Below are positions 1,822 to 7,617 of a stretch of 64,000 nt of DNA, piece by piece. Below the pieces are notes generated by a model. That model made no database searches and was not told the DNA's origin. It saw only the letters and a program-made list of their open reading frames with translations. Every line of letters begins with the position of its first letter. Positions within the stretch are counted from its first letter, which is position 1. Source of the stretch: Promethearchaeota archaeon (GTDB taxonomy: Archaea; Asgardarchaeota; Lokiarchaeia; Sigyniarchaeales; SOKP01); the NCBI GenBank assembly GCA_048938855.1, contig JBHLLT010000004.1, positions 121,497 through 185,496 on the forward strand, written 5' to 3'. Both the position numbers and the translations under genes were made by a program.

Positions 1822-1886
1822 CTGAATCCCTCACAGGGATAATCATCCAATAACTACCATTTTTTTATTGGAATCATTTTTTCAAG
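1822..1886 (-). promoter_or_regulatory. SECIS element 1 (eukaryote-type core)
   Basis: RNA CUUGAA-AAA-AUGAU-UCCAAUAA-AAAAAUGGUAG-UUAUUGGA-UGAU-U-AUCCC-UGUGA-GGGAU-UCAG, starting right after the stop of a TGA-containing ORF. Confidence 0.85.
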
Positions 1887-1887
1887 T

Positions 1888-2091
1888 TTAAGATAAATCT
1901 ATTCTGTGAAAGAGGCTTACGTATAAAACGATCAAAACAATTGCAGTTAATAAAAAGATCACTGAAGCTATAAGATAATTAACATAAAAACCTCACGCCC
2001 CCGATTCAAGATAACAAGCTATAGATGTTATTACTGATCCTATTATGGCTACAAGAATTATTGCTTTCTTTAAGTTTTCATTCAACAGCAT
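1888..2091 (-). CDS. putative small 2-TM selenoprotein 1 (67 aa, TGA at 1993-1995)
   Basis: MLLNENLKKAIILVAIIGSVITSIACYLESGA-U-GFYVNYLIASVIFLLTAIVLIVLYVSLFHRIDLS; frame stays open and hydrophobic after TGA; SECIS follows. Confidence 0.8.
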
Positions 2092-2204
2092 CACTTTTTT
2101 CTGTTTGAGAGTTTGTTTTAATCAAATATTAATTCGATTAAATATAAAAAATTTGACTATGAAATAATCGCAAGTAGAAATATTAAAAAGGAAAAATAAA
2201 AGTA

Positions 2205-2603
2205 TTATTCATTTAGAAGAATTTTTAATCCTTGAATAAGTTCTTGAGGAGTTACTCCATATAAAAGTGCCTGATGCATCATTTTAATGTTTATATCAAT
2301 TAGAGAATCTAAGTCTTTTCCCGGTTGAAATTTCACCATTAGTTTCTTGATAATTTTATATACTGAGAATTTATTTTGCTTTAATTTCCCAAAATAGCCT
2401 CCATATGCCAAGAAGAGGTTTGCCATGAGTTCAAGGTCTTCTTGTGAGTTATTTTTATAACACTCTTCGCATACCACTCCAAAACTAAGTCCTTCCTGAT
2501 ATATTGAAGCTCCTCGTTTGATTTCATTTCTACAAATCCCACATTTTATCACATCACGAGATAAATGGGTGGTCGGTTCTATATTAATTGAATTGATTTC
2601 CAT
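2205..2603 (-). CDS. zinc-finger hypothetical protein
   Basis: CGIC...CEEC pair; island promoter motif at 2625-2639. Confidence 0.75.
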   Translation of the reverse strand: MEINSINIEPTTHLSRDVIKCGICRNEIKRGASIYQEGLSFGVVCEECYKNNSQEDLELMANLFLAYGGYFGKLKQNKFSVYKIIKKLMVKFQPGKDLDSLIDINIKMMHQALLYGVTPQELIQGLKILLNE

Positions 2604-2737
2604 AATATTCTTTAATACTAGGTATATTTAAAGAAAAAAGGGTAGAAAATAGTTTGATAAATGTATATAAAACCCGAACTATTTTCACATTTGATGTCTA
2701 AATATTAAAATAAAATAATGATTTTAGCAAAATATTA

Positions 2738-2803
2738 CCAAAATCCTGGGCGAGGATAATCATCCAATAACTACCATTTTTTTATTGGAATCATTTTTCT
2801 TGG
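2738..2803 (-). promoter_or_regulatory. SECIS element 2
   Basis: CCAAG-AAAA-AUGAU-UCCAAUAA-AAAAAUGGUAG-UUAUUGGA-UGAU-U-AUCCU-CGCCC-AGGAU-UUUGG. Confidence 0.85.
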
Positions 2804-2818
2804 ATTTAAACCTGAATT

Positions 2819-3034
2819 TTACTTATTCGATTTTCTTTTATCTTCTATGTATAACATTCTGATTACACCGAGTAACACACAAGCAATTATGAAACTAGCA
2901 AACATCACATATGGAGGAAATAATAAATAACTACCTCAAGCTGAAAGCATCGACATCACTAACATGCTAATACCAAAAATTATGAAAATAAAAGAAACAA
3001 CACCTAAAATTCCTTTAACTACTGCATTTGACAT
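2819..3034 (-). CDS. putative small 2-TM selenoprotein 2 (71 aa, TGA at 2936-2938)
   Basis: MSNAVVKGILGVVSFIFIIFGISMLVMSMLSA-U-GSYLLFPPYVMFASFIIACVLLGVIRMLYIEDKRKSNK. Confidence 0.8.
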
Positions 3035-3097
3035 AAAAATCATTCTATTTTGTTATTCACTTATCCTGAATTTTAAAATCGTTTAGATCTTTAATCT

Positions 3098-3307
3098 TTA
3101 TTTATTTTGTATTAATGGGAGCACAATATATATTACAATTGATACTATTGCAATGCTATCACTAATTATCGCGGGTATTGTGAGATATCTTATATTTCAT
3201 GATAAAACAGGGTAATAGTACGGGGAAAGTATATGTAAAACGACACCGATAACACCAAATATACATATAAGACTCAATAGAATTGTCTTGATTTTTTTAG
3301 TTTTCAT
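3098..3307 (-). CDS. putative small 2-TM selenoprotein 3 (69 aa, TGA at 3197-3199)
   Basis: MKTKKIKTILLSLICIFGVIGVVLHILSPYYYPVLS-U-NIRYLTIPAIISDSIAIVSIVIYIVLPLIQNK. Confidence 0.75.
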
Positions 3308-3432
3308 CTGAAATCTTTATTTTCTGGCATTTATATTTATTTTTGTATATTATTTTCACTAATCACTATTTTAAGTTTATTATCAAAAGTTCTATAATTT
3401 TGTATTAGTTGAAAGCTTACTTTGAATATTTC

Positions 3433-3497
3433 CCGAATCCCTCACAAGGATAATCATCCAATGACTATCATTTTTTCATTGGAATCATTTCTTTCGG
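3433..3497 (-). promoter_or_regulatory. SECIS element 3
   Basis: CCGAA-AGAA-AUGAU-UCCAAUGA-AAAAAUGAUAG-UCAUUGGA-UGAU-U-AUCCU-UGUGA-GGGAU-UCGG; A-U to G-C compensatory pair relative to copies 1 and 2. Confidence 0.85.
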
Positions 3498-3515
3498 TTT
3501 AAATTTGAGTAAGAT

Positions 3516-3740
3516 CTAGCCTCTTATATCTTCCACCACTAAAACTATTAATACAACAATATAGACCAATGCTAAAAAGAGGCCTATAATCACTGAATAA
3601 ACTGGATTTACTGATATTGTCCATGTTGTCGATGGAGCTCAAACAACAGTCATCATTGAGTCGATTATTGCTCTAAAAATGAAAAATAATGCACACATTA
3701 TTAGAACTACTTTGGTTGTCCACTTCAATTCAAATCTCAT
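3516..3740 (-). CDS. putative small 2-TM selenoprotein 4 (74 aa, TGA at 3639-3641)
   Basis: MRFELKWTTKVVLIMCALFFIFRAIIDSMMTVV-U-APSTTWTISVNPVYSVIIGLFLALVYIVVLIVLVVEDIRG; both Trp are TGG; GAGTGAG upstream. Confidence 0.8.
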
Positions 3741-3772
3741 TTTACTCACTCAACATATTAATCACAGAACAT

Positions 3773-3979
3773 TTATGTTCGTTTCGCTTTCCTAATATAA
3801 AGTATATATGCCACAACCAAGATTCCCGCAATTGAGAAGCTAATAATTGCTGGGATGGGCGTCTCTACTAGCAGATGTCCTCAAGCTAATATGTTATATC
3901 CAATTATTAATCCAACACCCATAACCAAGAAAACAACTATGAATGTGATTAAAAGCCCTTTAATTACATCCTTTCTCAT
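3773..3979 (-). CDS. putative small 2-TM selenoprotein 5 (68 aa, TGA at 3881-3883)
   Basis: MRKDVIKGLLITFIVVFLVMGVGLIIGYNILA-U-GHLLVETPIPAIISFSIAGILVVAYILYIRKAKRT; AAGTTTTATATA promoter-like site near 4031-4042. Confidence 0.8.
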
Positions 3980-4097
3980 TTTAATCATTAAATTTCTATT
4001 TAATTTATGACGATGAAAAAGAAAAATCATTATATAAAACTTGTTTAATAAAAGTTTGAAAATTTGGATTTGGTAAAAGCTGAAATAATTTTTTTAA

Positions 4098-4808
4098 TCA
4101 AATTAGTACTATTCCATTATGCTTTAGAATAAATTGAAAGTTCCATTTCATATCATTGAATTGTATAAGTAAATCTTTTTTTTCAGTATTAATTACTTTT
4201 CTCAACTCGATATCAATTGTCTGAATTCTATCATATAGCTTATAGAAGAAAGGTCTAAGCTTTTGGAGAGTTGGATTATAAGTAACTTCATGAATTATGA
4301 ACAAGATAATACCATTCCTTTTACAAAATATAATAAAAGGCATAAGAATTGTGTCGTAAAAGCTATCTAATATATATGAAACATGCTGTGGCGTATTAAA
4401 ATGAGTTATTTTATAACGTAAATGGTGGGATATATTATCAATAACCAAGTATTTAAGATATGGGGGTAAAATGAAATTTGAGTTTAATATTTTTTCTATA
4501 ATTGAAGATTGTTCTTCATATGTGCAGATTGGTCCTTTTTGAGGGATTATATAAATATTATTTACTACATATTCTAATTTTTGGGGATTATTTTCAAAAA
4601 TTTGTGATATCCGTTTTACTGGAAACCTTTCGCTTGCTTGAACCCAAATACATGAATCTTTATATGGTTCGTTTTCGGTTAAAAGGTTACCTATTAGCTG
4701 AAGTGCAAATGTAGTCTTACCGGTCCCAGATTCACCAGAGATAGAGAGTATATTATGATGAGAAAATAACTTTTCAATACCATGGAATAGGTTCAATTCT
4801 GTCTGCAT
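4098..4808 (-). CDS. RadB/Rad51-paralog-like RecA-family ATPase
   Basis: GESGTGKTTFALQL Walker A, YLVIDNIS Walker B, no N-terminal HhH; likely start MQTEL at 4808, coupled to the upstream stop. Confidence 0.8.
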   Translation of the reverse strand: MQTELNLFHGIEKLFSHHNILSISGESGTGKTTFALQLIGNLLTENEPYKDSCIWVQASERFPVKRISQIFENNPQKLEYVVNNIYIIPQKGPICTYEEQSSIIEKILNSNFILPPYLKYLVIDNISHHLRYKITHFNTPQHVSYILDSFYDTILMPFIIFCKRNGIILFIIHEVTYNPTLQKLRPFFYKLYDRIQTIDIELRKVINTEKKDLLIQFNDMKWNFQFILKHNGIVLI

Positions 4809-4809
4809 G

Positions 4810-5154
4810 TTAATCTTCTTCAAGCAGTTCAAGTACTTCTTGTTTGATTTTATCTATTTGTTGATCCTTTTCTTTTTTTTTTTCATTATCTACTTGATTG
4901 TCATTATTCTCTGAAGAAGAATTCATAAGCTGCTGTATCATCATTAACGTTATTAGGTCATCCATTCTACTGTCTTGCTGAGCATTTTTTCCACTAAAAA
5001 ATCCAAATACCCCTCTATTCGAACCCGAAGATCTCGATTTGAAAAACAAATAGACAATTATAAACAATACAATAATAATAATGGCATACATTGGATTCTG
5101 TTGATAGAAGATAAAAAATCCAAGTATTAACGCAATATAACAATATCCTTTCAT
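4810..5154 (-). CDS. small membrane protein (N-terminal TM hairpin)
   Basis: two hydrophobic segments then charged tail; GGTGGA SD-like site. Confidence 0.75.
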   Translation of the reverse strand: MKGYCYIALILGFFIFYQQNPMYAIIIIVLFIIVYLFFKSRSSGSNRGVFGFFSGKNAQQDSRMDDLITLMMIQQLMNSSSENNDNQVDNEKKKEKDQQIDKIKQEVLELLEED

Positions 5155-6375: not shown

Positions 6376-7617
6376 GTGATCAAAACAATGGCAACTTATA
6401 AAGCACTTCAAAATAGTCCGTTATCTATTATTAATTCTCACTTAGAATGTGATATTTGTGGTTCAGCAGATATTGTTGATACTTCAGAGGGATATGTATG
6501 TAGAAAATGTGGAATTGTTCTTGAAATTCAAAAACTCCAGTACAATCGACCTTATAATAAAGATTTGATTCAACATTCAATAGGGACTGGGAAAACTCAG
6601 ATTGGAAATAATCGCGAAAGATATGTCTCACCAAATTCAGAAAAGTTGAATAGATTAAACAGACAAAATTCAATAATTCCTAATGAACAAGCGATTATTG
6701 AAAGAGCTGATTTAGAGATATCAAGAATCTTCAGTGAATTAAACTTAAGTGAATTTGATACACTCAAAAAGATGGTTCTTAGTAAATTTAAAGAGATTAG
6801 ATCTAAATTAAGAAAAGGAGTAAAATTTCGTAATACGGATAAATTAGTTTCTATAATCATCTATTTTTGTCTTAAACTTCGAAACATATCGATAAATGCA
6901 ATTGAATTAATTAATGTTTCGAAGATTACCAAAAAGGAATTTAATGATTTTTGTTTACAAGTAAGAAAATTTATTCCTGAATATTTAGATCGAAACAGAC
7001 AAAAATATATTCTTAACCAGATTTTTGAGGTTTCTCAACATTTTGAACTTGGAATGGAATTCTTTCATCTTGCCCGGAAAATCTTAAAAAAATTATGGCA
7101 TGGCATCAAAGACACGACTGATGCCGCCCTCGCCGGATTAGTATCCTCAATCTCTCTTTTATGTTCTCAAAATGAAGAGGTAACTGTCAGTGCGATATGT
7201 AATCGATTAGGGATAAGAATGTCTACAATCCAAGCTCAAGTTAAAAAGAAAATTATTAATGAATTTCGTGTTGAAGGATTTATTAGTCTTATTAAATCTG
7301 CTGATCTTTTGGTACAAATTATGGATAAAATGGGATTAATTAACGACAGGCCTTTCATACGCCAAAAAGTGATAGCTGAAGCATCTGAAATTGTTGAGAT
7401 TGATGTTGGTAATGCTGACAGAGTGTTTAATGCCATTGATAACATAGATTATTATTATGCTTATTATGTAATTAAAGGTGATGATAATAAAGTAATATTT
7501 ATCAACGTAGCCATTTATCATTTTGATGATTCCTTTAAGAAAAATGAAAAGCCTCAAAGTATGGCATTTCTGGATTTTTTACTTTATAGGTACCCTCTTC
7601 CAACCGGACCTCCATGA
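6376..7617 (+). CDS. divergent TFB/TFIIB paralog with C-terminal extension
   Basis: Zn ribbon CDICGS..EGYVCRKCGIV, two cyclin-like repeats, VTVSAICNRLGIRMSTIQ HTH. Confidence 0.8.
   Translation: MIKTMATYKALQNSPLSIINSHLECDICGSADIVDTSEGYVCRKCGIVLEIQKLQYNRPYNKDLIQHSIGTGKTQIGNNRERYVSPNSEKLNRLNRQNSIIPNEQAIIERADLEISRIFSELNLSEFDTLKKMVLSKFKEIRSKLRKGVKFRNTDKLVSIIIYFCLKLRNISINAIELINVSKITKKEFNDFCLQVRKFIPEYLDRNRQKYILNQIFEVSQHFELGMEFFHLARKILKKLWHGIKDTTDAALAGLVSSISLLCSQNEEVTVSAICNRLGIRMSTIQAQVKKKIINEFRVEGFISLIKSADLLVQIMDKMGLINDRPFIRQKVIAEASEIVEIDVGNADRVFNAIDNIDYYYAYYVIKGDDNKVIFINVAIYHFDDSFKKNEKPQSMAFLDFLLYRYPLPTGPP

Follow-up and report, generated by a model that had tools for sequence, protein, structure and literature searches.

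Selenocysteine (Sec) proteins of Asgard archaea have been assigned to seven families, all found by homology (Huang 2024, PMC11227280). The Asgard selenoproteins HdrA-VhuD/MvhD, VhuU and PrxL are served by a Sec insertion sequence (SECIS) known as the lokiSECIS or Asgard type I eSECIS-like element (PMC4989117, PMC11227280). The lokiSECIS is defined by an AUGA before a stem of 9 base pairs (bp), a GA (or AA) after it and an apical loop of 11 nucleotides (nt) in which the first five positions are A and the last is G, and in Lokiarchaeia a shared element of this type lies behind hdrA and vhuD, two genes in tandem (PMC4989117). Here we analyse an array of five small genes, o1 to o5, in a stretch of 64,000 nt (the window) from contig JBHLLT010000004.1 of a lokiarchaeial genome (assembly GCA_048938855.1; 3.95 Mb, 30% GC, 97% complete). 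An earlier reading of the DNA, called the original prediction below, had proposed that the array encodes an expanded family of tiny membrane selenoproteins that gene callers miss. As judged from the sequence, the in-frame UGA of each of the five genes is very probably read as Sec.

All five genes lie on the minus strand and encode two-helix proteins of 68 (o1, 3773-3979), 74 (o2, 3516-3740), 69 (o3, 3098-3307), 71 (o4, 2819-3034) and 67 amino acids (aa; o5, 1888-2091). As the original prediction had it, each open reading frame (ORF) of 67-74 codons contains a single in-frame TGA, at codon 33 in o1 (3881-3883, L-A-U-G-H), 34 in o2 (3639-3641, V-V-U-A-P), 37 in o3 (3197-3199, L-S-U-N-I) and 33 in both o4 (2936-2938, S-A-U-G-S) and o5 (1993-1995, G-A-U-G-F), and the A-U-G context described for three genes is that of o1, o4 and o5. 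Hydropathy places a helix on either side of the TGA, and the frame then continues for 35, 40, 32, 38 and 34 codons, respectively, to a TAG in o2 and a TAA in the others, within the 32-40 codons first proposed. Alternative ATG codons are found at 3988 for o1 and at 3043 for o4. The paralogues share only 18-38% identity. In a blind scan of the whole 3.95-Mb genome for the layout of start, helix, TGA, helix and TAA or TAG, the five matches were exactly o1-o5; the length and hydrophobicity limits were taken from the family, which means that the scan demonstrates uniqueness and not discovery. No further family copies were found in the same genome by tblastn. The region containing o1 and o2 (3314-4200) is identical, with zero differences, in a contig from an independent study, the TGA is retained in orthologues of o1-o4 in other genomes, and a related gene with TGA and SECIS occupies the o5 slot at locus L181. 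As far as tested, the orthologous TGAs and, for o1 and o2, the identical independent contig disfavour an assembly error.

Evidence for Sec comes from the RNA elements that the original prediction had placed after each gene or gene pair. Three such elements are present on the minus strand, each 13-30 nt past the last gene of its unit: SECIS 1 (3432-3497, AUGA at 3488) is shared by o1 and o2, whose UGAs lie 395 and 153 nt upstream; SECIS 2 (2738-2803, AUGA at 2794) is shared by o3 and o4, with UGAs 405 and 144 nt upstream; and SECIS 3 (1821-1887, AUGA at 1877) belongs to o5 alone, whose UGA is 118 nt upstream. The two genes of each pair are presumably co-transcribed, and at L195 one element stands behind three genes with four UGAs. 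The core of all three elements consists of AUGA, a U.U pair followed by eight Watson-Crick pairs, an 11-nt loop in which the first five nucleotides are A and the last two AG, and then GA, and therefore agrees with the published lokiSECIS definition (PMC4989117). A strict lokiSECIS pattern matched the genome nine times, compared with 0, 1 and 0 times in shuffled versions. Three of the nine matches are those of the array, and the remaining six lie downstream of hdrA-mvhD (three), hdrA, prxL and one undescribed TGA gene. Across 18 family elements two-sided changes were seen at 10 of 16 pairs, a count reached by none of 500 shuffles, which, the aligned sequences being related, is not to be read as a probability; slid controls scored far lower. 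SECIS 1-3 also have a lower stem and, on the 3' side of the core, an additional short hairpin, an arrangement likewise seen behind hdrA/mvhD. A covariance search that started from the RNA found a two-helix TGA gene upstream of 13 of the 18 informative new top matches, the others being a Sec-less member, an orphan element, two hdrA-mvhD loci and one-helix TGA genes. Conversely, all 25 TGA members first found in genomes by protein search have a SECIS 115-622 nt downstream. The array RNAs had no meaningful match in Rfam, which did not recognise the Loki SECIS either. As a separate observation, the extra hairpin sits inside the lower stem of the Loki SECIS, giving a three-way junction, and covaries; an RNA model that includes it has matches in 132 of 135 genomes of the family, and we found no description of it in the passages of published SECIS accounts available to us.

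If the TGA were instead a true stop, the products would be one-helix peptides of 33 residues, or the genes would be pseudogenes, and the RNAs would be terminator-like repeats. In line with this, some relatives contain orphan SECIS elements as well as copies that are truncated or carry a frameshift, SECIS 3 is followed by a T run (a possible terminator), and the minimum-energy folds of the isolated RNAs are of modest stability (z -1.2 to -1.9), a measure that is uninformative for a non-canonical core. We nevertheless consider a true stop highly improbable. The frame after the TGA is open for 29-49 codons in all 38 TGA members, the RNAs match the SECIS of known selenoprotein genes in the same genome, and beyond the TGA synonymous changes far outnumber replacements. 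Pooled over five close pairs, the ratio of nonsynonymous to synonymous substitution rates (dN/dS) was 0.22 after the TGA (p 3e-12) and 0.25 before it, in agreement with the conservation on both sides that was originally expected. For the individual genes compared with those of genome G007, the ratio after the TGA was 0.05 for o1 and o4 and 0.43 for o2 and o3. The sequence beyond the TGA is under purifying selection.

The residues found at the TGA column, and the genetic code of the host, bear on whether UGA could instead encode Trp (by genetic code 4 or by local recoding). Trp is common at membrane interfaces, where the site is located, and a W appears at this column in nine database proteins. 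The seven that we looked up have TGA in the DNA, and their W arises only from translation with code 4; an eighth, on the same contig, likewise has TGA. TGA also behaves as a normal stop in the genome. Of 2291 long ORFs, 302 terminate at a TGA, from which the next TAA or TAG is a median of 8 codons away, and the sole tRNA with a UCA anticodon that was found, in a tRNA set that is incomplete, is tRNA-Sec. In 78 distinct aligned sequences the main column contains TGA in 64, Cys in 4 (TGT), Gly in 4, Ser in 2, Pro in 1, Asn in 1, a gap in 2 and Trp (TGG) in none; some of the 14 rows without TGA are weak hits, and the alignment of the Cys clade is loose. Trp is the least probable of the readings considered here and is by now largely refuted. 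The expectation that homologues would carry either TGA or Cys at this position was borne out in part, with 64 TGA, 4 Cys and no Trp, and has to be modified in that Sec is not universal, the 14 rows without TGA having Cys, a small residue or a gap there, and in that some members have 2-3 predicted Sec. In the o4 group a second column, located in helix 2, has Cys in o4 (Cys53), in L180 and in one L181 gene and TGA in G007, L173, L181 and L195, and is a direct pairing of Cys with predicted Sec.

The genome also encodes the Sec machinery that the original prediction had called for, two of its components with some reservation. A stretch of 7 kb on contig C49 contains a tRNA-Sec (UCA), SecS at a distance of 200 nt from it and, at 4.7 kb, an EFSec-like GTPase. 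The tRNA-Sec, SecS and two SelD proteins score above the cut-off, and the EFSec-like GTPase has an E value of 2e-68. The two selD genes are tandem paralogues (C34:253707-255755); each contains a TGA and has a separate type II-like SECIS. In addition, a gene of the PSTK/KTI12 family is found on contig C1. On these grounds EFSec and PSTK are probably encoded.

Several observations weigh against our interpretation of the array as a set of functional selenoprotein genes. The EFSec-like GTPase scores slightly below the cut-off for bacterial SelB, and PSTK is assigned by family only. Two of the close pairs have a dN/dS near or above 1, with few changes. The structural model of o4 discussed below is of moderate quality. 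Some paralogues have Gly, Ser, Pro or Asn in place of Sec, part of them with the SECIS retained, which makes Sec dispensable in part of the family. Finally, no partner reductase or conserved functional neighbour was seen, and the cassette is found at several unrelated loci.

TGA-bearing matches were found in 30 of 400 Asgard genomes, all of them from the family f1, with 21 (the source genome included) in genus g1 and 9 in genus g2. Three weak matches outside family f1 lack the TGA and are doubtful, and in genus g2 weak hidden Markov model matches of 130-190 aa were discarded, being hydrophobic proteins without relation to the family. The reach outside Asgard archaea was examined by a profile search of 1.8 billion proteins alone, which gave 18 matches, all family-like; genes cut at the TGA are invisible to such a search. 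At the syntenic locus, where the flanking genes are retained in relatives, the copy number is 1 in G017 and G011, 4 (one of them frameshifted) in G040, 5 here, 9 in G007 and 10 in L181. With 1-10 copies in 30 genomes, the family is indeed expanded. We used a quick family tree with weak deep support, solely for orthologue groups. Orthologues of o1 occur in G007, G017 and L181, of o2 in G007 and L181 and of o3 in G007, G040, G011, L174, L181 and L195. The o5 slot is variable, with a different sequence in a close strain and nothing in G007. Blocks resembling the sequence upstream of o1 recur three times in the G007 array, and family copies are also found next to a parvulin gene and a tRNA, and at additional loci. 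These genes do escape annotation, as had been suspected: in G007 the o1 orthologue is situated between the two TGA-less paralogues, and yet the NCBI locus tags of these two follow directly on one another, and the JGI gene calls at family genes are fragments of 32-35 residues. As a further observation, orphan SECIS elements and copies broken by a frameshift or an early TAA are found at L021:3673, L165:1174, L167:1133, L164 and L052, some of the breaks being possibly assembly errors; orphan elements and broken copies together suggest rapid gene turnover around a retained RNA element.

What form the protein takes in the membrane is suggested by an AlphaFold model of o4, an antiparallel hairpin with helices at 3-32 and 42-69 and Sec33 at the end of helix 1 (predicted local distance difference test score, pLDDT, 71; predicted template modelling score, pTM, 0.40). 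The density of Lys and Arg is 0.29 in the N-terminal tail, 0.05 in the loop and 0.33 in the C-terminal tail. According to the positive-inside rule the more basic segments remain in the cytoplasm, and this bias would therefore place the loop, and with it the Sec, on the outer face of the membrane and both ends of the protein in the cytoplasm. Alternatively, helix 1 may be a signal peptide and the Sec the +1 residue of a lipobox or of a signal-peptidase site, which would leave a short, C-terminally anchored surface peptide with a free N-terminal or lipid-modified Sec. We know of no organism in which a lipid is attached through selenium. Like prokaryotic lipoproteins, the array proteins have a basic N-region, a hydrophobic helix and [LVI]-x-[GAS] before the chalcogen residue, often with Gly next (PMC12462473). 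In our alignment residue -1 is A, G or S in 31 of 38 members, against about 0.2 after ordinary first helices of the genome, and +1 is Gly in 26, while [ILV]-x-[AGS] occurs in 21 of 40 against a background of about 0.05; with Sec taken for Cys, a strict lipobox pattern ([LVI]-[ASTVI]-[GAS]-C) fits 11 of 38 members and a PROSITE-type pattern 18 of 38, including o4 and excluding o2. A similar x-A-C site follows the signal helix of a few secreted proteins (contigs C32, C43, C62 and C79), and an archaeal signal peptidase I is encoded. However, the members are related and the enrichment at -1 and +1 is thus overstated, seven of the 38, among them o2, carry T, L, V or P at -1, and helix capping predicts an Ala before and a Gly after a helix end. 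Helix 1 is conserved like helix 2 among orthologues (dN/dS 0.06-0.14 for o1, o3 and o4), and both helices contain conserved packing residues. The array proteins also differ from lipoproteins in having Sec for Cys, mostly at position 29-43, a second helix ten residues on and a conserved first helix. Lgt and Lsp were not found in the 97%-complete genome, in a search that did not include AliA, a family known from Euryarchaeota and DPANN; lipoproteins are few in Asgard archaea (PMC12462473). We therefore regard cleavage at the Sec as distinctly unlikely and favour the uncleaved hairpin.

Our proposal for the uncleaved hairpin is as follows. Each of the three mRNAs (o1+o2, o3+o4 and o5) would carry a Loki-type 3' SECIS that lets EFSec and Sec-tRNA read the mid-gene UGA as Sec, and the two genes of a pair would share a single SECIS, as hdrA and mvhD do. 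The resulting protein would be a helical hairpin of about 70 residues with the Sec closing helix 1 at the outer face. Most members lack a resolving Cys, and the exposed selenol may form a Se-Se or Se-S bond with a neighbouring hairpin or another surface protein. Given the gene model, the function that we consider most likely, with about even weight, is a reaction of this surface selenol with oxidants, sulfur species or soft metals, followed by intermolecular resolution. A surface redox or metal function would fit the CxxxxC paralogues and the one CxU member of the family, as well as the loops with three in-frame TGAs found at four loci (L036:1507-1719, L159, L088:144-383 and L176:22-219), which read U-G-U-G-G-U in two species. 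Gene and SECIS may have spread together as cassettes by tandem duplication, loss and replacement.

That the Sec is inserted without being catalytic is somewhat unlikely in our view, though less so than cleavage. The UGA would then be a selenium-dependent switch or a sink, and the hairpins would be structural or defence proteins such as variable surface or immunity proteins. The patchy spread, the 1-10 copies, the cassette swaps at a fixed slot and the low identity among paralogues are indeed reminiscent of accessory or immunity arrays, the site is occupied by Gly or Ser in some paralogues, and the three-Sec loops could store selenium. On the other hand, 64 of the 78 sequences, spread over deep branches, still have the TGA even though a single mutation (to GGA, TCA or TGG) removes its cost, the Cys clade and the second Cys/TGA column suggest chalcogen chemistry, and in the loci examined a toxin, defence or viral gene was not seen as a consistent neighbour.

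With the known Loki selenoprotein genes (HdrA-VhuD/MvhD, VhuU, PrxL) the array shares the geometry of the SECIS, its position close past the stop and the machinery, as well as the use of one SECIS for two tandem genes, the upstream genes ending in UAA or UAG. The proteins themselves are different. The known Loki families comprise soluble redox enzymes that have Cys homologues throughout the prokaryotes, whereas the array family consists of integral membrane hairpins of 60-87 residues, is restricted, in the genomes searched, to one family of Lokiarchaeia, and forms arrays in which up to three genes precede a single SECIS. It is absent from the seven families of PMC11227280, and no description of it was found in a literature search, beyond whose reach most subscription papers lay. 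The Asgard passages of a 2026 review add no Asgard family, and the review contains neither 'transmembrane' nor 'membrane protein' as a term. Searches of 44 members against Pfam and NCBIfam at E 0.05 gave only scattered weak hydrophobic matches, to at most two members each, and no match to the models of SelD, FrhA/VhuU, HdrA, FrhD, PrxL, AhpF-N or DsbA-like proteins. Foldseek found nothing in the PDB, and a wide VIA-align search gave generic helical hairpins (Z up to 8.3) that do not support kinship. The original suggestion of an undescribed family thus stands as regards Pfam, NCBIfam, the PDB and the Asgard selenoproteome papers. The system of decoding is a known one. What appears to be undescribed is the protein family, together with its Sec, which is embedded in the membrane and probably faces outward, and its arrays, which resemble cassettes.

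The eukaryotic proteins SELENOK and SELENOS are also small membrane selenoproteins without a CxxU motif, and they have a single helix, a Sec 2-3 residues from the cytosolic C-terminus and a Gly/Pro-rich tail (PMC9344019). We rejected an identity of the array family with them, given its two helices, its mid-chain Sec (29-49 residues follow) that is predicted to lie outside, and the lack of any sequence match seen. SELENOK forms an intermolecular diselenide (PMC9344019), and this dimer is a model for the intermolecular resolution proposed above. Closer in lineage are the one-helix CxU/UxC membrane candidates of Loki genomes, which share with the array family the size, the N-terminal helix and the SECIS type and differ from it in having a single clear helix and a Cys near the Sec. 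A profile comparison of the two gave a probability of 7.6% over 11 columns, which is not significant. One copy of these candidates was noted on contig C66 of the same genome (L125:1749-1958, minus strand). It is a membrane protein of 70 codons that contains C-G-U and has a SECIS of its own, and in its relatives one helix is followed by CxU, CxxU or UxC.

The Asgard selenoproteome has so far been charted mainly via homology and listed as soluble enzymes, and our results would add to it a lineage-specific integral membrane family. In the genome studied here this amounts to at least five more Sec genes, with selenium probably exposed on the cell surface. The family also suggests how new selenoproteins may originate, by the copying of a cassette of gene and SECIS and, as in helix 2, by the change of Cys to Sec once a SECIS lies downstream. 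It bears on whether small membrane selenoproteins were already open to the archaeal relatives of eukaryotes, a question separate from any link to SELENOK or SELENOS, which our data do not show. With genes of about 200 nt and UGAs 118-405 nt from the SECIS, the array may offer compact natural reporters of how a eukaryote-like SECIS acts without SBP2 and across cistrons.

The array is split by a fixed neighbour that does not belong to the family, a minus-strand gene (2205-2603) for a protein of 132 aa with two CxxC motifs, no TGA and no Pfam hit. A TATA-box-like element (4031-4038, minus strand), identified by pattern match only, lies upstream of o1. The array is flanked by genes for a RadA/Rad51 protein with a C-terminal helix-hairpin-helix (73-1302), a small KaiC/RecA-like ATPase upstream of the array (4098-4832) and a divergent TFIIB-zinc-ribbon protein (6376-7617), and no functional link between these flanking genes and the array was seen. 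Elsewhere in the genome, on contig C49 (L126:1804-2280, plus strand), a gene of 158 codons contains two adjacent TGAs (H-A-D-U-U-A-D) with a lokiSECIS 131 nt downstream, and TGA-TGA and SECIS are kept in all ten close relatives examined. It is located behind a small CxC protein and a membrane protein of 360 aa, which we take to be arsenite-permease-like. Its product has no Pfam hit, homologues of the N-terminal part are found in 131 of 161 genomes belonging to the class, and the gene probably encodes an undescribed tandem-Sec selenoprotein.

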